Under the pieces are notes generated by a model. It ran no database searches. It had not been told where the DNA came from and saw only the letters and a list, made by a program, of their open reading frames with translations. From assembly GCA_031272575.1 (NCBI GenBank), contig JAISTO010000036.1, positions 1 through 44,886 on the forward strand: a stretch of DNA of 44,886 bases, read 5' to 3'. Source of the stretch: Treponema sp. (GTDB taxonomy: Bacteria; Spirochaetota; Spirochaetia; Treponematales; Breznakiellaceae). The position numbers and the translations under genes are program-made. How positions within the stretch are numbered: position 1 is the stretch's first letter; each line of letters opens with the position of its first letter. Below are positions 828-44,745 of the stretch, piece by piece.

Positions 828-1798
828 ATAGCCTTGTTCGGCAGGCCGGTTGGCTGCCTCCAATCAGGCGGGTTTTTGTCTGCGCGTCCGCGCTGCTGAC
901 GGCGTCCTGTCCGCAGAATCCGCTTGACGTTTACAATTATGAAGGCAATAGTTCGGTTGTCGAAGATGCCGCGCCCCTGCATATCTTTCTGATCGGCCTG
1001 GATGGATGGGGGTCTTTCAGTCTTCCGCGGGCCGAGATGCCGGTGATAAAACGCATGATGGAAAACGGCGCATACACGCTGGCAGCCAAGGCGGTCATGC
1101 CCTCCCGAAGCGCGCCGAACTGGGTTTCCATGCTAAGCGGCGTCCCGCCGGCCCTGCACGGGTACACCCAAAACACCGCAAAGCCCCTGTTTACCCCGGC
1201 AATCACCGACGAAGACGGCCGTTATCCCAACGTCATCACGCTCCTGTCGAAATTGCGGCCCGACTGCGCGATAGGCGTTTTTTACGAGTGGGAGGGCATT
1301 GGGGATATTTTCCCTGTTTGCCGCGCCGCCGTGGAAGCGCAGCTTCCGGACCTTTCCTCAAACCGGGAAACGCTGGAACCCATTCTCAATTATATTGACG
1401 GTCTCAGGGCCAGCCTAAGTTTTACCTTTGTGCATTTTGACGGCGCGGATCACGCGGGTCATTCGGCGGGCTACGGTTCTGACGCTTACTACGATATGCT
1501 GCGCGGTCTGGACGGCTTTGTCGGCGAAATTGAACAGGCGGTGAGAGACGCGGGTCTGATGGATAACGCCGTCTTTATTATCAGCGCGGATCATGGCGGA
1601 AAAGGAAACGACCACGGCGCCGATACCATCGAAGAACGGGAAATCCCCCTGATCCTGTACGGAAAGAACATCAAAAGCGGAACCGTCATCCCCGGCCCGG
1701 TGGACATTTACGACATAGCGCCGTCAATAGCGGCCCTGTTCGGCATTTCCCCGCCCACCGTATGGACGGGGAATCGTTTGCCTCTTCAGAACCCGTAA
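824..1798 (+). CDS. alkaline-phosphatase superfamily, type I phosphodiesterase/nucleotide pyrophosphatase (NPP) family
   Basis: Motifs GLDGWGS, SAPNWVSMLSG, HFDGADHAGH and ISADHGGKGNDHG resemble the metal-ligand/nucleophile motifs of this family. Confidence 0.75.
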   Translation: MNSLVRQAGWLPPIRRVFVCASALLTASCPQNPLDVYNYEGNSSVVEDAAPLHIFLIGLDGWGSFSLPRAEMPVIKRMMENGAYTLAAKAVMPSRSAPNWVSMLSGVPPALHGYTQNTAKPLFTPAITDEDGRYPNVITLLSKLRPDCAIGVFYEWEGIGDIFPVCRAAVEAQLPDLSSNRETLEPILNYIDGLRASLSFTFVHFDGADHAGHSAGYGSDAYYDMLRGLDGFVGEIEQAVRDAGLMDNAVFIISADHGGKGNDHGADTIEEREIPLILYGKNIKSGTVIPGPVDIYDIAPSIAALFGISPPTVWTGNRLPLQNP

Positions 1799-3753
1799 CT
1801 CGCGCCCAGCGTGAACTGCGCGTCGAAGGCATTCACCCCCTTGATGTTCCCCTTGTTGGCCACGAACACGAAATCCGCCTGGCCGTAAACAGCAAGGCTT
1901 TTGACGCCGGGCATATCCCGCAGGATGTTCCACGCGCCTGAAAGGGACAGGGCCGTAAGGTAGTAGGGCGCGTTGCGGGCGGCGGCGTTTTCGTCGGCGT
2001 AGTTCCCCTGGTAGTGGTGGTCGGTGGGGGTGCTCTGGTAACCCGGGCGGTTCTGGTAATCACCCGCGGCATCTAAGCCAGCGTCCCAGCCGGCGCTGTT
2101 GTCCTCGATGTCGACCGCCGACCAGCGGGTCCACTTGTCGAAGGTGCCGTGCACCATGAACATGAGGTTGGCGCCGGCGCTCCACTTGCCGAAACTGCGG
2201 TACGCGGCGTTGGCGTTGAGCACGATGGCGTCGCCGCCCCAGCGGTAGCCGAGAAACTCCTCCACAAAGAGAAGCGGGGCGCCATCAGCGGCCGAATAGT
2301 AGCGGTTCGCCACCACATAGTTCAGTTCGCGGTTCTTTTTATTCGCGGTCATGCGCTGGGCGCGGAGGTACAGGTAGGGGTCGGTATAGGCGCCCTCAAA
2401 GGAGCCTGAAAGCATGCCGCCCCAGAGGGGGAAGGCCGTCTTTGCGCCCAGCATGAAGCCAAAGGCGTCGGGGTTGGCGTCGTCATCGGCGCCGGGCGCG
2501 GGCTCGCCGGGCAGGTGAAAGTCGTCCACCGCGATCTGGCCGTAGAGGTTGAGCGCCGGCAGGGCCGCCCAATCCACCTCCAGGCTCAAGAGGGAATTGG
2601 CATCGTAGGTGCGGTACAGGTTGTGCATGAGTATCGTGGGAAGGAAGTACTGCAAGTCCGCCTGCCCATCCTCCGGCTGGTACATGATAGCCTCGGAAAG
2701 GGCCATGTTCACCTTGTTGAATAGGCGCCATTCAAGCCGGTGGGCGATAAAAAAGTTCAGGCCATCGTGCGTCTGGCCGGCATCGTCATTCCAGACCACC
2801 GTCTCATTTTCATCGGTCGTGTAATACTCATTCGGCGAAGGAAAACCGGACACATTGAAAAGGTACTTGAACTGGTCATTGTAGGCCGTAAGGCGGACGT
2901 TGTTGTGATAGTCCACCTGGCTTCCCACCATAAAGTTGCCCGATTCCCCCGGCCCCCAGGAGAGCCGCTCCCGGCCGATTTCCAGGTTGAGGCCGGGCAC
3001 TCCCAGGGAAATAAACGTCCGGTTCGGGAAGTTGAAGTTCAGGTCGTTCAGTGTCGCGGGCGGCACCATGGGGATGTTTGTGCTGAAGGCGGAGGAGCCG
3101 AAAAAGGCCGATCCAACGGATTTTTTGCCGTTCTCGTCGAGAATGGCGTTGTACTTTTCGTTTCCCAGGGAAAACTCCCCGAAGCCGTAGGCGTAGGGCG
3201 TAAGGCGCAGTTCAAAATCCAGGGCCAGGAACGGCTTTGTCAGGTTCATGGGCCGAATGTAGTCGTCCAGGCGGGTAAAATCTTCGGGGTTGCTGTGAGC
3301 GTAGGCCTCGGCCGTCACCGCGCCTGAAAAGGTGAAGGCCCGCGCCGGCGCCTTGAGTGTCCGCTCCGCGTACTCGTAGGCGGCCCGCTCCCCGTCGGCC
3401 AGGTTCTCCGTATCAAGCCGCCCCAGCATGAGCAGCAACTCGTCTTCAGTCCAGGGCCCGGAGGTAGACGGCAGCGCCAGCCCCGCTCTGATATAGAGGG
3501 CTTTGATCGCCTGGTAGACCTCGCTGTCGATGGGGTAGACCTTCTGGTGGTTCCCCGCCTGCGCAAAAGCCGCCTGCGCACACAGCGCAAAGCAGAGCGC
3601 CGCCCCCGCGATTAACGCGCCGCGCCGCTTCCCCCCCCACGCGCCCCATGACGCGCTTTTTTGCGCCACGGGGGGGGGGGGACAAATTTTCACTTTAGAG
3701 AAACTGGACATATTATGAGCGCCCGGTCTCTCCATGTAACATACATTCTGCAT
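1786..3753 (-). CDS. large secreted/outer-membrane protein of unknown function with a C12 tract in its leader
   Basis: Part of ORF 1786..3891. AAAGGAG plus 6 nt precedes ATG 3753. The N-terminus is MQNVCYMERPGAHNMSSFSKVKICPPPPVAQKSASWGAWGGKRRGALIAGAALCFALCAQAAFAQ. The signal peptide lies 3' of the tract and the body is aromatic/Gly-rich. Confidence 0.6.
   Translation of the reverse strand: MQNVCYMERPGAHNMSSFSKVKICPPPPVAQKSASWGAWGGKRRGALIAGAALCFALCAQAAFAQAGNHQKVYPIDSEVYQAIKALYIRAGLALPSTSGPWTEDELLLMLGRLDTENLADGERAAYEYAERTLKAPARAFTFSGAVTAEAYAHSNPEDFTRLDDYIRPMNLTKPFLALDFELRLTPYAYGFGEFSLGNEKYNAILDENGKKSVGSAFFGSSAFSTNIPMVPPATLNDLNFNFPNRTFISLGVPGLNLEIGRERLSWGPGESGNFMVGSQVDYHNNVRLTAYNDQFKYLFNVSGFPSPNEYYTTDENETVVWNDDAGQTHDGLNFFIAHRLEWRLFNKVNMALSEAIMYQPEDGQADLQYFLPTILMHNLYRTYDANSLLSLEVDWAALPALNLYGQIAVDDFHLPGEPAPGADDDANPDAFGFMLGAKTAFPLWGGMLSGSFEGAYTDPYLYLRAQRMTANKKNRELNYVVANRYYSAADGAPLLFVEEFLGYRWGGDAIVLNANAAYRSFGKWSAGANLMFMVHGTFDKWTRWSAVDIEDNSAGWDAGLDAAGDYQNRPGYQSTPTDHHYQGNYADENAAARNAPYYLTALSLSGAWNILRDMPGVKSLAVYGQADFVFVANKGNIKGVNAFDAQFTLGASYGF
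3670..3681. repeat. homopolymer G12 (C12 on the coding strand)
   Basis: 12 consecutive G counted by hand. It encodes PPPP between the start codon and the signal peptide of the 1786..3753 gene and is currently in frame. Confidence 0.9.
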
Positions 3754-3772
3754 AGTATCTCCTTTGAAAAAG

Positions 3773-3801
3773 AGTATGCGGAAAAAGCGCGGGTATGTCA
3801 A
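3773..3801 (-). promoter_or_regulatory. candidate promoter for the 1786..3753 gene
   Basis: Minus strand reads TTGACA, 17 nt, CATACT, followed by AAAGGAG and ATG 3753. Confidence 0.4.
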
Positions 3802-3847
3802 TGGGGGCGCACGGGACACTGTCAACAAGTTAAGAAAAGGGACAACC

Positions 3848-3874
3848 GTCATTCCGCGGCTTGACCGCGGAATC
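3848..3874. repeat. REP-like palindromic repeat, short form
   Basis: gtcattccgcggcttgaccgcggaatc. Its reverse complement differs at 1 nt from the 27-mers at 9861 and 20261. A degenerate second copy lies at 3957-3978. Confidence 0.8.
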
Positions 3875-4009
3875 TCTACCAAAATGGCCATTTTGAGGAG
3901 TAGATTGCGTAGTTCGGTTAAAACCGAACTATGTCAAGCCCGGCAAAGTAACAATCGTCATTCCGCGTCTTGCGCAATTAACGGTGTTTCACGTGAAACA
4001 TCTGGCGCG

Positions 4010-38500: not shown

Positions 38501-38806
38501 GCTCACCTGCGCGTTGGCGACCCGCGAGGCGTAGAGGAAGCACGCGCTGCCCGCATTCGTCACCCTGATGACCCGCGCGGACTGCTTTTCGAGGCGCGGC
38601 GTCCCGGGGTAGGATTCGCCGTTTACGGTGATGGTATTGCTGGTAATGTACCACGCTTCGTCCGCGTCTATGCGGAGCCATTCACCCCAAAACTCGCTCC
38701 CGTAGCGGGGGCCGGTTTCGGAGCCGGTAGGGGTTTTACACGCCGCCCCGCAGAGGACGGCGAGCGCGAGGAGGAGTCCCCGTTTTACGCGATTTTTTGC
38801 AGGACG
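35525..38806 (-). CDS. giant surface lipoprotein: CarboxypepD_reg-like domain, four Fn3 repeats, C-terminal DUF1566-like domain; 5' end interrupted by C11 tract
   Basis: The track ORF 35525..38563 starts at GTG. The frame stays open upstream to the tract and there encodes RPAKNRVKRGLLLALAVLCGAACK (lipoprotein signal). Four repeats of about 90 aa have the Fn3 pattern (L.V.W....GA..Y.+YY....Y.V.V.A). The tail YDDWFLPSKDEINQM resembles DUF1566. Confidence 0.8.
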   Translation of the reverse strand, partial: RPAKNRVKRGLLLALAVLCGAACKTPTGSETGPRYGSEFWGEWLRIDADEAWYITSNTITVNGESYPGTPRLEKQSARVIRVTNAGSACFLYASRVANAQVSGTLADAGAGRSVAGLEVTLVNLNDAANTVTATTASDGTFTAQGLIPGDEYELRAAGDTARVTPGANGDHLGTLHLTGGGVNFKARIAPARIAPAGTSVNARYGYAGADTFTFTINVTNTGNAGCYAPSYTLAFEDGLATQTQSGISNRLCTGTLKPGETVSTSEITIGCTPVDADAVFKKISITITDATTDPQHPKTWTDSVSVRFFKTPVTFNAASQYPVAGLILSPLSGACRFSTAHDGTVYRSSVTMPWSSAPYLAVISGTAESSEAIYSLGINTMPQTNFSSFSAFKINEPNDTEADATLLDGQIMADIHENDIDCCTVTLGNTAPYPLSITGFALKELIDKNIVNVTPGASAYLDIRIKNNTTTTISSAQVTLSSESEYITIGQNTILSVGNLSGGYYKTLNSTQSTNANIVFFYGGSLYGTFTFSASAGCPMGTVLPLTLTFNNGGALWTDTIEVTTTAPAPANVQAAPLSNTSLAVSWDAIAGAEKYEVRYSTGSSPDTAQSVEAAAINATLSGLAANTTYSVWVRALHGAITGAFASASGKTRVNAPTAIEVTPAGVGGLMVTWTEVDGATGYDLYYSTTNDSTAATKESDVTIPHVIADLNIGTLYYVWLKAKNALGESPLSASASGVPAPAAPTGVNAVTLSDESIQVSWDSTDGAAAYDLYYHTANISSAAVRLSVVTSPHTLTGLSNGTTYYVWVKAWHDTVVTDYSTVVNTITKPGAPDGLTAAAQSLSSILVLNWNAVTGADTYTVYRADSVDGPYTTPITSGITETSYTDTGLTKETTYYYKVSAVNAEGEGALSAAVSQTTLAYQIGDTGPAGGWIFYADTTGFVSDSITCHYLEAAPADLATAYQWGGYGTLCGGTGTDIGTGATNTAALVTHNHGTPQLGSGLHLAAQACADYEYGGYDDWFLPSKDEINQMNINLKQQGAGNFTNIWPIYASSSESNRSYAWCLNSDGSSNDLILSYIMKDIPGQVRPVRAF

Positions 38807-38816
38807 GGGGGGGGGG
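38806..38816. repeat. homopolymer G11 (C11 on the coding strand)
   Basis: Counted by hand: 5 G ending line 38801-38810 plus 6 G starting 38811. It lies between the candidate start codons and the lipoprotein signal peptide. Confidence 0.9.
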
Positions 38817-39003
38817 CAAATTGATTCAGTTGTTGCTCTGACGCTGGAGATTTTCGAGAAAATGCCCGCCGCGCCGTCTCAGCGGGAGGGACCGCGAGAC
38901 AGGCAAAAAGAGCGCCGCCTGCCGCGAAGCGGGGGGCGCGGGCAGTCCGAGGGACTGCGACAGCCGCCAAGGCTGCCAAGGAAAAGATATTTTTCATATT
39001 GGA

Positions 39004-39032
39004 AGTATAGCGGGGTTTTGGGGGAAAGTCAA
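39004..39032 (-). promoter_or_regulatory. consensus promoter in leaderless layout, reading toward the lipoprotein gene
   Basis: Minus strand reads TTGACT, 17 nt, TATACT, 6 nt, ATG 38997. Confidence 0.5.
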
Positions 39033-39054
39033 GAGGGCACGATGCCCTCTTGAC
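39028..39054. promoter_or_regulatory. perfect 12-3-12 palindrome carrying back-to-back -35 hexamers
   Basis: gtcaagagggca-cga-tgccctcttgac. The left arm supplies TTGACT on the minus strand and the right arm supplies TTGACA on the plus strand. Confidence 0.6.
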
Positions 39055-39140
39055 ACTAATCTGCTTTTTAGTGCAAAATAAAGAGACATCGCGATGCTGC
39101 GCAGGCAGCACTAATCTTGAATGGCGCTCAAGGAGCATAT

Positions 39141-40495
39141 ATGGCTAATTTTAGGCAAGGGCAAGTTATCCCCCTGGCGGGGGGGGGGGCGAGGCAGAAA
39201 TTGTTCGCACTTTGGGGGAGGGCGGACAAGGCACGGTGTATGAGGTTCGCGTTGGCGGTAAGCCTTATGCGCTGAAATGGTACCACGCGGGAAAACTGAA
39301 GGACAAAGCGGCCTTTCGCGAAAACCTTCGATGCAATATCGAAGAGCCGGAGCGGAGCATGGCGGATTGTCCCATGTTTCTGTGGCCCAAGTTCCTGACT
39401 GAGGAACAGGACGGCAGTTTCGGGTATGTGATGGACCTGCGGCCGCCGGACTACACTGATTTTCCGGCGATTCTGAATCGCAAGGACCGAAAGGGGCAGC
39501 GGGTGGAGTTTGCCTCCACCGAAACAATGATCGCTGCCGCCTTGAATCTGGTGAACGCTTTCCGCGCGCTGCATCGCAAGGGGCTTTCCTACCAGGATTT
39601 AAACGACGGAAACTTCTTCATCAATATTGATACAGGAGCCGTGCTGATTTGTGACAACGACAATGTCACGCCGGACGGCGACGTAAACTCAGGCGGCATA
39701 GGGGGCAAACCCGGGTACATGGCGCCGGAAATTGTCACAGGCAAGGCGCAGCCTTCCGAGCGTACCGATTGCCATTCACTCGCGGTTGTTCTTTTCAAAT
39801 TATTCTTTCGTCATAGTCCGCTGCAAGGGGCGGCTTACGAAAAACTTCCCTGCATGACCGAAAAGCGCGAGATGGAACTGTTCGGGACGAATCCGGTATT
39901 TGTCTACGATCCGGATGATGATACAAACCGGCCGGTCAACGGCGTACACAACAATGTGATAAAACTCTGGCCGCTCTTCCCCGCGTTTTTCAAAGACGCG
40001 TTTGTTCTCTCGTTTGCTCAAGGGATGAAAGCCCCGCAGCGCCGCATCGTCGAAAACGAGTGGCAAAAAATCCTCGTGCGTCTCCGCGACGAATGGTATG
40101 TTACCTGCGTGTCCTGCGGGCGCGCCATTTTTCTGCACCCGGAAAACAAAGAGGCGGGGCTTCGCTGCGGCGGCTGCGGGTCACAGTCTACCTATCCGCG
40201 AAGCCTTTCTATCAAGAAGGGCGCACTCGTGTACACGGTGCCGCTCTTCCCCGCAAAAAAACTCTACGACTGGCACACCACCGAGTCGAGTGAAGACTTC
40301 ATCACCATAACGGGCGAAGTGGTGATGAATAAAAACAATCCCTCGCTTTGGGGAATCAAGAATTGCTCAAACGAGGCGTGGCGCATGGTCACCCCCGACG
40401 GCACAGCAAAAGAAGTGCCCGCCGAGGGCGCTGTTCCTATCGGGGCGGGCGTTAAGGTCATCTTTAACGGCCTTGACGGAATAATAACTCAGTAA
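39141..40495 (+). CDS. Ser/Thr protein kinase with C-terminal zinc ribbon; frameshifted at G11 tract (track ORF 39212..40495)
   Basis: AGGAG plus 5 nt precedes ATG 39141. After the tract a different frame encodes GEAEIVRTLGEGGQGTVYEVRVGGKPYALKWY (Gly-rich loop and Lys), HRKGLSYQDLNDGN, GKPGYMAPE and CVSC...CGGC. A +1 change in the tract joins the two frames. Confidence 0.8.
39179..39189. repeat. homopolymer G11
   Basis: Counted by hand: 2 G ending 39171-39180 plus 9 G starting 39181. It begins in codon 13 of the kinase reading frame that starts at ATG 39141. Confidence 0.9.
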
Positions 40496-40510
40496 AGGAG
40501 AATCTCAAAA

Positions 40511-41242
40511 ATGAGTGACGCAATTTACGGCAATGTGGAGGGCATCATACGCAGGCAGATGGTGCTGTTCTTTTTAATTGACACCTCCGGCAGTATGCAG
40601 GGGCAGAAAATCAGCGCGGTCAATACGGCCATCCGCGAAGTGGTACCGGAACTGGCGGACATCGGGGGCGCGGACATCGATCTGAAGATCGCGGTGCTTG
40701 AGTTTTCGATGGGCTGCAAATGGCAGAACCCCGCGGGGCCCGTATCGGTGGACGATTTCATGTGGAACAACCTCAGCGCGGAAGGCGGCACCGATATGGG
40801 AACGGCCTTTCGGGAATTGAACGAGCGCCTCTCGCGCAACTCGTTTCTAAAAGCGCCGTCGGCATCGGTCGCGCCGGTGATACTGCTCCTTTCGGACGGC
40901 CAGCCGAGTGACGATTACCAAAGCGCGCTTGCCGCCCTCAAAAACAACAACTGGTTTAAGAGCGCGGTAAAAGTCGCGCTCGCTATTGGCAGTGACGCTG
41001 ACTGCAATGTACTCGCGGAATTCACCGGCACCAGCGAAACCGTGCTTAGCGCCTATACGCCGGATATCCTGCGCAAGATGATACGCACCGTGTCGATTAC
41101 CTCCGCGCAGATCGGTTCCCGCAGCCAGCCCTTACAGGAAGGGGATATTGTGAGCAAGCAGGACACCATGGCAGCGGAGATCAAAAATCTCAAGCAGACG
41201 GATCCGGATTACAATTCCGCGGATACGCTGGAAGGCTGGTAA
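40511..41242 (+). CDS. von Willebrand factor A domain protein (TerY-like)
   Basis: MIDAS motif in FFLIDTSGSMQG, later GGTDMG and LLSDGQPSD. AAAGGAG SD. Confidence 0.85.
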   Translation: MSDAIYGNVEGIIRRQMVLFFLIDTSGSMQGQKISAVNTAIREVVPELADIGGADIDLKIAVLEFSMGCKWQNPAGPVSVDDFMWNNLSAEGGTDMGTAFRELNERLSRNSFLKAPSASVAPVILLLSDGQPSDDYQSALAALKNNNWFKSAVKVALAIGSDADCNVLAEFTGTSETVLSAYTPDILRKMIRTVSITSAQIGSRSQPLQEGDIVSKQDTMAAEIKNLKQTDPDYNSADTLEGW

Positions 41243-42105
41243 TGTACCTCAGTTTTAGCGCCCGCGCACAGGGGGACAGCCACAAGGAAAAGGACATCCC
41301 CTGCCAGGATGCGGTCTTCACGTACGTCGATCAAAAGACCGGCGGCCTCGCGATTGTGGCAGACGGCCATGGAAGCGAAAAACACTTTCGCAGCGACGTG
41401 GGATCTGCACTTGCGGTTACTGTTGCGCATACGACAATCGTGGAGTTCCTTCATATATTGAATGATGGCTCCATGCGCCGCGGTGCATTTGACCAGCGCT
41501 ATACCGATGAAATCACCATGATGCAGGAGCAACTGGCGCAGCTTGAACGGACGATTATTACGCGGTGGCGTTCCGCGGTACTGCAGCATTTTGCGGCACA
41601 CCCGCTCAGCGAGCGTGAACAGGCACTCTGTACGCGGGAAAACCTTACGCTCACCGATGAGGATGCACAGGTCCGTGTGTACGGTACGACTCTTATTGCC
41701 GCACTCGCGCATAGCAAGTTGTGGTTTGTCATTCAGATCGGGGACGGCAAATGCGTAGTGCTTGATGACGAAGGCACTCCGTATTTCCCGCCGGAACTCG
41801 ACGATGAAAGTCTTGCCGGAGGCCAGACGACTTCCCTGTGCGACTCGGATGCGGCAGGTCATTTTCGCTGTGATTTCGGCTTCGAGCGCATTAAGGGCAT
41901 TACCGTGGCCACCGACGGCGTAAGCGACTCTTTTTTGCCCGAGGAGTATCTCAAACTGAATGCCCGTCTCTTTGCCGATTTTCTCGCTAACCACAAGAAG
42001 GCGCAAAAGGGGGTGGAGCAGTCTATTGCGGTATGGTCAACAAAAGGCTCCCGCGATGATGTATCCATGGCGGGAGTCTTTTACAAAAATGGTTTATTGG
42101 AGTGA
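41242..42105 (+). CDS. PP2C-family protein phosphatase
   Basis: IPCQDAV, LAIVADGHGS and VATDGVSD motifs. The start overlaps the vWA stop (TAATG). Confidence 0.8.
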   Translation: MYLSFSARAQGDSHKEKDIPCQDAVFTYVDQKTGGLAIVADGHGSEKHFRSDVGSALAVTVAHTTIVEFLHILNDGSMRRGAFDQRYTDEITMMQEQLAQLERTIITRWRSAVLQHFAAHPLSEREQALCTRENLTLTDEDAQVRVYGTTLIAALAHSKLWFVIQIGDGKCVVLDDEGTPYFPPELDDESLAGGQTTSLCDSDAAGHFRCDFGFERIKGITVATDGVSDSFLPEEYLKLNARLFADFLANHKKAQKGVEQSIAVWSTKGSRDDVSMAGVFYKNGLLE

Positions 42106-42120
42106 AAGGAGAAGTATAGC

Positions 42121-43368
42121 ATGAACACGAATTTGTTAACCGCGATAAAGGCGTTGGCGGCGAAGGGCGCTGATGTGTTTAGTGACCTGAAGCGCGTTGA
42201 CGAAAGTCTGCCGGTGTTTGCCAACAAGGAGGCTGCGGCAGAGCGCAGGGCTTTTCTTGCGGTGCTGGCATCGGGGCTTCCCGCGAAGTTGCGCGAGACC
42301 AAGGATACCGCGGCGCGCGCAAGTCTGGTCAACCGGGCCGCGCATTCGCTTTCCGGCGCGAACGAGGCGCCGCCAGCGCTGGCGCGGGAAATCGCCGCGC
42401 TCGTCGAGGCCCTCTGTCCCGCAAAAAGCGCCGCTGCCTCGCCCCCCGCGCCGCCGGTACCGCCGCGGCAGGTTCCGGCCGCGGGGGCGCCGCTGCCGCA
42501 AAGTCCCGAGGCGGCCAAGCCGCCAGCGCGGGCCCTGCGGCTGAGCCGAAAAACGGTGTTTTTCGCTCTTGCGGCAACGGGAGGTGGGCTCGTTACCGAA
42601 AGTATCTGTGAGTGCATACCGTGGTTTAACCAGCATGGGGGGACTTTTTGGTCGGTCATTGTTGAGACTGCCGTATGGTTTGGGGTGATTGCACTGGGCT
42701 TAATCGCGTGTCTTCTCGCGGCCCAGAGTGGGTATCTGAAAAAGCCGCCGAGCGCCCCCACTGTGGTAAAGGCGGTGCTTTTGGGAGTCCTTTCCGGCGC
42801 GGCCGCTGGCGGGCTTGCACAAGCGGTGTTTGCATACACTTCGCAGATTTCAACGGCAGTAGAAATCGTCAGCCGCATACTCTGCTGGGGCTTTGCGGGC
42901 GCGGGGGTAGGGCTTGGTACGAGTTTCTTCGTTCCCAACTATCCGATAAAGCGCTCCCTGCCCGCCGGACTCGTTGGGGGGCTTTTGGGGGGCGTGCTGT
43001 TCCGCGCCTCATTCGGCATTATGCCGGAAGGCATCGCCCGGGTAGTGAGCATCGCCATTCTGGGGCTGTGCATAGGCGCGACTATCGCCATAGCCGAGGA
43101 AATCCTCCGTGAAGCATGGATCACGGTTGACTGGGGGCACAACGAACGCGTGAATGTCACGCTCGGTACCAGGCCGGTGGTACTTGGTTCCGCGCCGGAA
43201 GCGGACATCTTTCTTTCGCGGCAGAACTATCCTGCGGTTGCGCTTGTCGTCAGTATAGACGGACAAAAAGTGATTGTCGACAACAAACTGAACGGCCAAC
43301 GAACCGAAATGGCAAACGGCAGCGAGTTGAGTTTGGGGACAGTCAAAGTTACCGTACACAAACGGTAA
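42121..43368 (+). CDS. membrane protein: shared N-terminal domain, Pro/Ala linker, multi-TM region, C-terminal FHA domain
   Basis: Hydrophobic segments between about residues 150 and 330. The C-terminus VVLGSAPEADIFLSRQNYPAVALVVSIDGQKVIVDNKLNGQRTEMANGSEL has the FHA pattern. SD AAAGGAG. Confidence 0.75.
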   Translation: MNTNLLTAIKALAAKGADVFSDLKRVDESLPVFANKEAAAERRAFLAVLASGLPAKLRETKDTAARASLVNRAAHSLSGANEAPPALAREIAALVEALCPAKSAAASPPAPPVPPRQVPAAGAPLPQSPEAAKPPARALRLSRKTVFFALAATGGGLVTESICECIPWFNQHGGTFWSVIVETAVWFGVIALGLIACLLAAQSGYLKKPPSAPTVVKAVLLGVLSGAAAGGLAQAVFAYTSQISTAVEIVSRILCWGFAGAGVGLGTSFFVPNYPIKRSLPAGLVGGLLGGVLFRASFGIMPEGIARVVSIAILGLCIGATIAIAEEILREAWITVDWGHNERVNVTLGTRPVVLGSAPEADIFLSRQNYPAVALVVSIDGQKVIVDNKLNGQRTEMANGSELSLGTVKVTVHKR

Positions 43369-43383
43369 CAAAAGGAGCATACT

Positions 43384-44745
43384 ATGAACACAGTGTTATT
43401 GACCGTCATTCAAAAAATGGTCGCTGAGTCAGGCGAATCGGTACTTGCTGACTCGCGGCGTGTTGCAGGTTACCTTGCGGATTTTGCCGCCAGGGAGCCG
43501 AAGGCGCAGCGGAACACGCTGGTGAAGTGCCTGGAACAGGGGGCTTACGCCGCGCTGAAAAGGGCTGCTCCCCATGAGCGCGGCGCGGTGAAGGAGCGGC
43601 TGGCGCGCAGGCTGCATACCGATGAGGGGTTTGATCGGTCTCTCTGTGAAGACAGCGTCAACCTGCTGGCCGTTGTGTTGTTCGGTCACGGCGAAGCGGC
43701 TGCGGGGGAAACCGCGGCGGCAATTCCGTCTACGGGGGACGAGTGGGTAACGGTACCGGAAGCGCGGAAGGCGGCGTTGGCGCAGGGGGATGCGGGCAAC
43801 AGGCCAATACCGCAAACTGCCGTGGCGAGGAAGGAACGGAAACGGTACTTGTCAGTGGGGATAGCGGCTTCCGTGCTTGTGCTTGGACTGGGTGTTGTCT
43901 TTTGGATGAACCGATACAACAATGCGGGCAACGCATCCCACCTTGGTCCAACTTTGGACATGGTGCGCATACAGGGTGGCACGTTCACGATGGGGAGCCC
44001 GTCGTCGGAGCCGGATCGTGAGGACGATGAGGTGCAGCATCGGGTGACGCTGAGTTCGTTTTACATGGGGAAGTACGAGGTCACTCAGAAGGAGTGGCAG
44101 GCGCTCATGGGGACGAATCCCAGTTCCTTCAAGGGTGACAACTTGCCGGTGGAGTGCGTGAGTTGGTACGATGCGGTGGAGTACTGTAACGCGCGTAGCA
44201 AAAAAGAAGGGCTTACGCCTGCGTACACGATAAATAAGACTCGACAGGATCCAAACAACACCAGCAGTTATGACAGTCTCAAGTGGACGGTGACCTGGAA
44301 CCGGAAGGCGAACGGGTACCGGTTGCCGACGGAGGCGGAGTGGGAGTACGCCTGCCGCGCCGGGACGACGGGGCCGTTCAACACGGGGAACAACATTACG
44401 ACGAGCCAGGCGAACTATAACGGGAACTATCCCTACAACGGGAACGCGAAGGGGCAGTATCGGGAGAAGACGACGGCGGTGGGGAGTTTCCAGCCCAATG
44501 CCTGGGGCTTGTACGATATGCATGGCAATGTCTGGGAGTGGTGCTGGGACTGGTACGGGAATTACTCAAGCGGCGCCCAGACGGACCCCGAAGGCCCAAC
44601 GGGCCCCGCCTCTTCGTGGTCGCGCCGCGTTCGCCGGGGCGGCAGTTGGTACAACAGCGGCCAGTACCTGCGTTCGGCCAACCGGGGCTACTACAGCCCG
44701 GGCAACCGGCTCTACTACCTCGGTTTTCGGCTGGTGCGTCCCTGA
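43384..44745 (+). CDS. membrane-anchored FGE-sulfatase (SUMF1/C-type-lectin fold) domain protein with DGR-VR-like C-terminus
   Basis: Shared N-terminal domain, one TM (YLSVGIAASVLVLGLGVVFWM), then GGTFTMGSP, YRLPTEAEWEYACRAG, GNVWEWCWDWY and RGGSW...GFRLVRP. Confidence 0.85.
   Translation: MNTVLLTVIQKMVAESGESVLADSRRVAGYLADFAAREPKAQRNTLVKCLEQGAYAALKRAAPHERGAVKERLARRLHTDEGFDRSLCEDSVNLLAVVLFGHGEAAAGETAAAIPSTGDEWVTVPEARKAALAQGDAGNRPIPQTAVARKERKRYLSVGIAASVLVLGLGVVFWMNRYNNAGNASHLGPTLDMVRIQGGTFTMGSPSSEPDREDDEVQHRVTLSSFYMGKYEVTQKEWQALMGTNPSSFKGDNLPVECVSWYDAVEYCNARSKKEGLTPAYTINKTRQDPNNTSSYDSLKWTVTWNRKANGYRLPTEAEWEYACRAGTTGPFNTGNNITTSQANYNGNYPYNGNAKGQYREKTTAVGSFQPNAWGLYDMHGNVWEWCWDWYGNYSSGAQTDPEGPTGPASSWSRRVRRGGSWYNSGQYLRSANRGYYSPGNRLYYLGFRLVRP

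Follow-up and report, generated by a model that had tools for sequence, protein, structure and literature searches.

A poly-G tract in the first codons of a TerY-P-like Ser/Thr kinase gene of Treponema, a candidate phase-variation switch with a second instance on the same glycine turn

A run of 11 G interrupts the conserved N-terminus of a cytoplasmic Ser/Thr kinase gene in an uncultured gut spirochaete, leaving the start codon and the kinase domain in different reading frames. The gene lies on the forward strand of the window, the whole 44,886-nucleotide stretch of contig JAISTO010000036.1 (Treponema sp., assembly GCA_031272575.1) that was analysed, and it heads a TerY-P-like triad of kinase, stand-alone vWA protein and PP2C phosphatase. 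We propose, with a probability of roughly 55%, that the G11 run (39179-39189) is a hypermutable slipped-strand tract that switches the kinase of this triad. An initial annotation of the DNA had suggested a phase-variable (contingency) tract. This suggestion is supported as the best explanation, and is strengthened by a second, apparently independent G11 at the same codon position in a related kinase gene.

The tract lies inside the open reading frame (ORF), 38 nt downstream of a conserved ATG. A Shine-Dalgarno (SD) sequence, AGGAG (39131-39135), stands 5 nt before ATG 39141, and the 13 codons from this ATG, encoding MANFRQGQVIPLA, run directly into exactly 11 G. With 11 G the ATG frame is only 44 codons long and terminates at TGA 39273-39275, so that the OFF-state frame spans 39141-39275. 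The kinase frame (39155-40495), with its Pkinase domain, CxxC...CxxC zinc ribbon and beta-rich C-terminal domain, is open from 39155, reads ...GGGGGEAEIVRTLGEGGQGTVYEVRVGGKPYALKWY, and has TTG 39212 as its first ATG, GTG or TTG. The initial annotation had placed all of these landmarks correctly. It had also predicted that a twelfth G would yield a normal kinase N-terminus, and indeed 12 G gives MANFRQGQVIPLAGGGGEAEIVRTLGEGGQG (LAGGGGEAE) and restores the full-length frame. Nine G is an equally good ON length (LAGGGEAE), with the exact spacing of the nearest homologues, such as LSGGGEA. The frame is therefore repaired by a change of +1 or -2, in-frame lengths are 9, 12 and 15 G, and the resulting kinase (450 or 451 amino acids with 9 or 12 G) matches its homologues end to end.

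Further upstream, a sigma-70-like promoter candidate for the kinase operon (TTGACA, an 18 nt spacer and CAAAAT; 39050-39079) matches the consensus. The intergenic region, shared with a divergent lipoprotein gene, also holds a perfect 12-bp inverted repeat, GTCAAGAGGGCA-3 nt-TGCCCTCTTGAC (39028-39054), and each of its arms contains the -35-like box of one of two promoter-like sites. This repeat may serve as an operator common to the lipoprotein and kinase promoters.

The homologues establish where the kinase begins. A search with the repaired protein returned thousands of relatives, mainly from Treponema and Spirochaetaceae and many of them from termite-gut metagenome-assembled genomes (MAGs), the closest being about 70% identical with 100% query coverage. 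More than 100 homologues start with M-x-E/N-F-x-x-G-x-x-I-x-L-x-GG(G)-x-A...LGEGGQG, and the N-terminal consensus, here with E/D at its third position, reads in full M-x-E/D-F-x-x-G-x-x-I-x-L-x-G-G-(G)-x-A-x-x-V-x-x-L-G-E-G-G-Q-G. The first half of this consensus is encoded in the ATG 39141 frame, whose N-terminal peptide MANFRQGQVIPL fits MxEFxxGxxIxL, and the second half in the kinase frame, with the junction exactly at the G run. Because the homologue N-termini are so uniform, ATG 39141 is the true start, and the frames upstream and downstream of the tract both encode conserved protein.

The tract also occupies a well-defined place in the predicted fold. The alignment of the Pfam Pkinase profile (E 1.1e-15) with the repaired protein starts at residue 21 and at profile position 3, and matches between the family profile and solved eukaryotic kinases in the PDB begin at positions 14-22. 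In an AlphaFold2 model (30 homologues), residues 9-12 are predicted to form strand beta0, residues 13-17 a turn that corresponds to the tract-encoded AGGGG, and residues 18-27 beta1, with a pLDDT score of 84-89. The glycine turn can accept three, four or five glycines, and is a natural site for such a tract. At the other end of the protein, the zinc ribbon cysteines C323, C326, C343 and C346 are invariant in the kinase family.

These data bear directly on the starts chosen by automated annotation. In the kinase frame, JGI and NCBI begin the protein at TTG 39212 (427 amino acids) and Logan begins it at GTG 39236 (419 amino acids), calls that fall within 39212-39238 and correspond to residues 25 and 33 of the repaired protein. 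If one of these products were functional, the upstream ATG ORF would be irrelevant. A GGAGG at 39217-39221, 14 nt before the GTG, adds to what the gene calls offer in favour of such an internal start. However, all full-length homologues carry some 24 more residues upstream, and this conserved sequence is encoded in the ATG frame. The TTG has no SD sequence, and in the AlphaFold2 model its product lacks beta0 and most of beta1; the GTG product also lacks the Gly-rich GxGxxG loop. The view that initiation at the TTG would delete beta1 is thus borne out, and the TTG product, which the initial annotation had raised as a potential conserved N-terminus, is not that of the homologues. We regard a functional internal start as very improbable.

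To place the tract in its family, we compared about 1.1 Mb of homologous loci, 80 of them taken from species-representative genomes and another 80 from metagenomes. Throughout these loci the glycine motif is written in mixed codons such as GGCGGCGGG or GGCGGA, and G runs at the site reach 6 at most. A conserved or ancestral tract was accordingly rejected. The exception is a further homologue, kinase P0021 on metagenome contig L163 (JGI 3300042619, Ga0466726_021507), which was picked out by its odd predicted N-terminus. Here GGAG stands 5 nt upstream of an ATG, the same spacing as in the window, followed by the conserved MADFQKGDQIAQI. The gene reads ATG GCT GAT TTT CAA AAA GGA GAC CAA ATT GCC CAA ATT, then G11 (1401-1411 of L163), then TACTTACCCGCAAACTTGGCGAGGGCGG, placing its tract at the same codon position as that of the window. 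Its kinase frame, ..GGGVLTRKLGEGGQG, is again out of register with the ATG, the true SD-ATG frame ends after 31 codons, and the existing annotation resorts to a spurious upstream TTG start (LESEWLIFKKETKLPKLGGG...). The in-frame lengths of L163 are 10 or 13 G, a correction of -1 or +2, which is the opposite of that required in the window.

The distribution of the tract among relatives suggests that it has arisen more than once. The L163 kinase is 71% identical to that of the window, and has closer relatives that lack the tract: P0015 (84%), P0014 (82%) and P0018 (77%), on loci L164-L166, and P0024 (76%), on locus L007, which carry GGAGGGGGT, GGCGGGGGT, GGCGGGGGT and AGCGGCCAT, respectively, at the site. 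Similarly, the nearest relatives of the window, L002 and L024, have no tract, with GGGGCGGCGGGG and GGGCGGCGGGG in its place. The sequences flanking the two tracts are unrelated. Since closer relatives of both genes are without a tract, the simplest history is that a long G run was gained twice, independently, on the same glycine turn. One further candidate, the truncated homologue P0026, was rejected as a frameshift because it lies at a contig edge. The wider family, sharing the same beta0-GG-beta1 motif at 45-53% identity, occurs in Ruminococcus, Oscillospiraceae, Alistipes, Prolixibacteraceae and a Bathyarchaeia MAG (Candidatus Bathycorpusculum) (loci L005-L081), which suggests wide horizontal spread and mobility of this kinase family among gut anaerobes.

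Long G/C tracts are over-represented in the window relative to chance, and are concentrated at the 5′ ends of genes. The 11-G word has four matches, which represent three tracts (G12 at 3670-3681, G11 at 38806-38816 and G11 at 39179-39189), all of them in the 5′ regions of genes. Dinucleotide-preserving shuffles gave a mean of 0.11 matches, and 0 of 100 shuffles reached four. The next longest runs in the window are G8 and C9. Across the related loci, G or C runs of at least 9 are confined to L163 and to L001, the window's own copy in the Logan collection. The remaining homopolymers of the window (A8, T8, G8, C8; 7-9 bases) fall, like the G12 tract, within uninterrupted ORFs, indicating that the assembly is not generally error-prone at homopolymers.

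The most obvious concern with any such tract is the count itself. If the real tract were in frame, with 12 or 9 G, the frameshift would be a sequencing or assembly error. Homopolymers of 11 are indeed error-prone, and each of the window's two G11 tracts would reach 12 with a single added base. The second assembly of this locus, Logan contig L001 (SRR14710912, 3611 nt), is 100% identical to window positions 38847-42457 and also reads G11. Two different assemblers therefore give 11, which excludes an assembler quirk, but the assemblies probably share reads, so their agreement excludes only assembler error and leaves room for a bias in the reads. Other considerations speak against a miscount. The G12 at 3670-3681 and further homopolymers leave their reading frames intact, and the lipoprotein tract probably needs -1 rather than +1. 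Further, either kinase tract taken singly might be miscounted, but the window kinase requires +1 or -2 and that of L163 requires -1 or +2, so that no single direction of miscounting, and hence no systematic bias, can repair both genes. A true 12-G coding tract would also be hypermutable all the same. On balance, we consider a consensus miscount unlikely.

The start of L001 is an observation in its own right. The contig starts exactly 31 nt past the final base of the tract at 38806-38816 and runs straight through the kinase tract. The Logan k-mer size is 31. The breakpoint might conceivably stem from a graph break, or from heterogeneity of the lipoprotein tract.

Apart from the tract, both kinase genes appear intact. 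The window kinase keeps 132 of the 136 columns that are invariant in 29 intact homologues, and differs by four conservative changes (P to V, S to T, D to E and Y to F). Of the same columns, 134 are retained by the L163 kinase, whose two mismatches both fall in its mis-called N-terminus. Both kinase ORFs stay open over about 430 codons, and the genes downstream are intact. Together, these features argue against old pseudogenes, and any loss of function would probably be very recent. Such an event is conceivable: synonymous C-to-G changes in GGN-GGN-GGN could have made the run, slippage would then have killed the kinase, and decay would be under way. GGG makes up 28% of Gly codons, so drift can create runs, and the L002 motif GGGGCGGCGGGG is only two substitutions from G12. 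The tract is lineage-specific, and both known instances are OFF. Nevertheless, this account requires the coincidence that two lineages, independent of each other, were both sampled shortly after losing the kinase at the same site, and G-run lengths at the site jump from at most 6 to 11 with no intermediates. Taken with the preservation of the invariant residues, the open ORFs and the intact downstream genes, this makes recent non-adaptive inactivation a minor alternative in our estimation.

A different possibility is that the G11 gene is expressed by recoding, in which RNA polymerase slippage, or -1 ribosomal frameshifting on G GGG GGG, would supply a steady low level of full-length kinase. 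On a G run both tRNA-Gly can pair again in the -1 frame, the shift that the window needs, and the 100 nt of RNA downstream of the tract folds better than shuffled sequences (z = -3.2), with a hairpin that starts 11 nt after the tract. However, the usual spacing between slippery site and hairpin is 5-9 nt, shorter than that found here. The opposite shift required by L163 means that -1 frameshifting cannot be a mechanism common to both genes, and the absence of the tract from about 165 homologues leaves no conserved recoding signal. A programmed -1 frameshift site was rejected, since slippery site and structure are not conserved among homologues, and no match to the known RNA elements and riboswitches of Rfam reached the gathering threshold around the tract. 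Transcriptional slippage could add leaky expression beside DNA slippage, but would not replace it. Recoding is thus an improbable explanation of the frameshift. Two RNA hairpins are predicted just downstream of the tract (39201-39274).

We therefore return to slipped-strand mispairing. At replication, this process would alter the G run one base at a time. Cells with 9, 12 or 15 G would make full-length kinase. In cells with 10, 11, 13 or 14 G, ribosomes starting from the SD sequence and ATG 39141 would stop after about 44 codons, and any re-initiation at TTG 39212 or GTG 39236 would give a kinase without beta0/beta1, or, for the GTG, without the Gly-rich loop as well. The assembled state, presumably that of the majority, would be OFF, with a minority of cells kinase-ON. 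This ON minority could constitute bet-hedging, with the costly module, whose presumed role is in stress or conflict signalling, silent in most cells. The switch would mainly remove the kinase arm of a kinase/phosphatase pair, as the vWA, PP2C and two membrane protein genes have ribosome-binding sites of their own. Any downstream effect would probably be exerted through transcriptional (Rho-type) polarity. The initial annotation had envisaged gating of the entire operon. Loss of the kinase stands, and only the kinase is certainly affected, whereas control of the whole operon does not follow, because the vWA, PP2C and FHA-like genes each carry an SD sequence (AGGAG or GGAAGG).

Several observations weigh against a slipped-strand switch. 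Both G11 instances are OFF, which is also the picture expected of recent gene death. The tract is lacking in about 165 other homologues and is thus not a conserved regulatory feature of the family. Both available copies of the window locus, the window itself and L001, have 11 G, and no length polymorphism is seen between them, although they come from the same strain and possibly from the same reads. Searches for alternative alleles were negative: an exact scan of JGI metagenome contigs with the 25-nt left flank, for tract variants of the same species, gave 0 matches, and the vWA and PP2C proteins, looked up by exact match, led only to L001 and to one 20-50 kb contig, presumably the window itself. 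In the protein collection, no in-frame version of the window kinase was found, its 90% cluster consisting of three frameshifted calls only, and the next match to the repaired query beyond that cluster is 70% identical. Finally, a one-base error could have occurred in a homopolymer of 11 bases.

The genes downstream of the kinase, all on the forward strand, define the module to which it belongs. After the kinase come the vWA gene, the PP2C gene and then two genes for membrane proteins, in that order. The stand-alone, TerY-like vWA gene (40511-41242; VWA E 2.5e-9) has its own AGGAG, and its stop overlaps the start of the PP2C phosphatase gene (41242-42105; PP2C_2 E 6.8e-33). The first membrane protein (42121-43368), again with its own AGGAG, has a weak FHA-like C-terminal match (Yop-YscD_cpl, E 0.0035) that scores 18 bits against a Pfam cut-off of 33.2. 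The second (43384-44745) ends in an FGE-sulfatase (FGS) domain of C-type-lectin fold (E 1.2e-58). These two membrane proteins share an N-terminal region of about 59 amino acids (E 1e-6). In Treponema, diversity-generating retroelements target FGS domains of this kind; within the window, which ends 141 nt after the gene, no template repeat for the FGS gene was found.

Comparison with TerY-P modules places the triad close to a known architecture. Anantharaman et al. (2012) reportedly gave the source description of the TerY-P triad. Two of its features are present here, namely a Ser/Thr kinase with a C-terminal zinc ribbon and an adjacent PP2C. With curated models, however, the fit is looser: PADLOC gave only generic matches for the kinase (mad6, PD-T4-6), none for the PP2C protein, and a weak match of its TerY model to the vWA protein (E 3.6e-4, with no stretch passing alone), and the matches from NCBIfam were likewise generic. 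A TerY-P antiphage defence system of the type of Gao et al. 2020 (kinase-OB fold) was rejected, since the curated models were not matched for all three components. Because the matches are generic or weak, we call the module TerY-P-like rather than a validated defence system. Passages in two accounts treat the combination of zinc-ribbon kinase, PP2C and TerY-like vWA as the TerY-P triad, a proposed phosphorylation switch linked to stress and conflict systems (PMC11090510, PMC4978471). A module of kinase with zinc ribbon and beta-rich domain, PP2C and stand-alone vWA has also been described (PMC7159879), as has YegI/PphC of E. coli (10.1101/819920). The locus resembles the TerY-P triad in its three adjacent genes for a zinc-ribbon Ser/Thr kinase, PP2C and stand-alone vWA, and in the wide spread of the family across phyla, but it differs in its kinase-vWA-PP2C order and in its two additional membrane proteins. 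A homopolymer switch for a kinase/PP2C/vWA module was not found in the literature searched.

A neighbouring tract, C11 on the minus strand (38806-38816), provides context, and is not part of the kinase switch. It sits at the 5′ end of the Fn3-rich gene for a lipoprotein, which is divergent from the kinase gene. Read from ATG 38997, this gene needs C12 or C9. Alternatively, a TTG (38819-38817) adjoins the tract and is in frame with C10 or C13, and C10 gives MPPPRPAKNRVKRGLLLALAVLCGAAC, which makes a clean precursor of a lipoprotein. Neither reading is in frame with C11. Twenty-nine lipoprotein homologues start directly at the signal peptide MKK...C, and the 60-residue leader from ATG 38997 is not conserved, which favours the TTG and thus a change of -1, to C10. 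The direction of repair is uncertain. It had been suggested that the same +1 change would repair lipoprotein and kinase alike. This is correct for the kinase, but for the lipoprotein it applies to only one of the two readings, and the homologue N-termini favour the other. At the opposite end of the window, the G12 at 3670-3681 (C12 on the coding strand) lies in the 5′ region of a 701-amino-acid minus-strand gene (1786-3891) that matches no Pfam family. A signal-peptide-like segment follows just downstream of the tract, which is in frame as assembled. This tract and that at 38806 share a flank motif of about 30 nt, AATTTG(T)-C(n)-GTnnnGCAAAAAAnCGCGT.

In its broader form, the proposal is more tentative. 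We speculate that in termite-gut treponemes a hypermutable G tract has evolved at least twice, independently, on the same glycine turn, making the TerY-P-like kinase arm a stochastic, heritable switch that is mostly OFF in nature and stands beside phase-variable surface lipoproteins. A eukaryote-like kinase signalling system would then be phase-variable in a commensal. This wider picture is somewhat doubtful at present. Should the tract indeed switch, phase variation would reach beyond surface antigens and restriction-modification to a Hanks-type kinase heading a widely transferred kinase/PP2C/vWA module. The tract would then offer a natural ON/OFF genetic handle, and the signals that the triad senses, as well as its cost, could emerge from a comparison of ON with OFF subpopulations. 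JGI, NCBI and Logan all annotated the truncated window kinase as normal, and the L163 gene was given a spurious N-terminus; such switches are consequently invisible in current MAG annotation. Our literature search returned nothing relevant on phase-variable Ser/Thr kinases or on phase variation in termite Treponema.

Poly-G length variation is an established expression switch in Treponema pallidum, where it controls tpr genes and tp0126 (PMC7864442, on TprL). The likeness lies in the related genus and in poly-G as the switch. However, in T. pallidum the tracts sit in promoters or further upstream regions and affect how outer-membrane protein genes are transcribed, whereas the present tract lies within the ORF and acts on reading frame. 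A promoter switch of the T. pallidum type was rejected for the kinase, given that the tract is 38 nt past the ATG and the promoter-like site lies at 39050-39079.

Translational phase variation by poly-G is known from meningococcal hmbR and hpuA (PMC3786947). With the contingency loci of Neisseria, Campylobacter and Helicobacter, the kinase tract shares a long G run within the first 20 or so codons, one-base toggling and over-representation, together with the clustering of several tracts in one region at gene 5′ ends. It differs in its target, a cytoplasmic Ser/Thr kinase rather than a surface protein or modification enzyme, in its uncultured gut spirochaete host, and in that switching is here inferred from sequence.

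Regulators and defence systems can also be phase-variable, as in the poly-C tract of Bordetella bvgS, Campylobacter flgR/flgS, and the G tract of pglX in the Streptomyces Pgl/BREX system. Pgl/BREX also contains a kinase, PglW, but its tract lies in the methyltransferase and not in the kinase. A further case is the poly-G phase variation of Klebsiella rmpA (10.1101/2025.09.12.675794). Like the tract described here, these homopolymers switch a cytoplasmic signalling or defence component and create heterogeneity in a costly programme; unlike it, none is known to affect a Hanks-type kinase of a TerY-P-like triad. The mechanism is therefore a known one, homopolymer phase variation, and the target is new; among the new facts, the second, convergent instance stands out as the most interesting.

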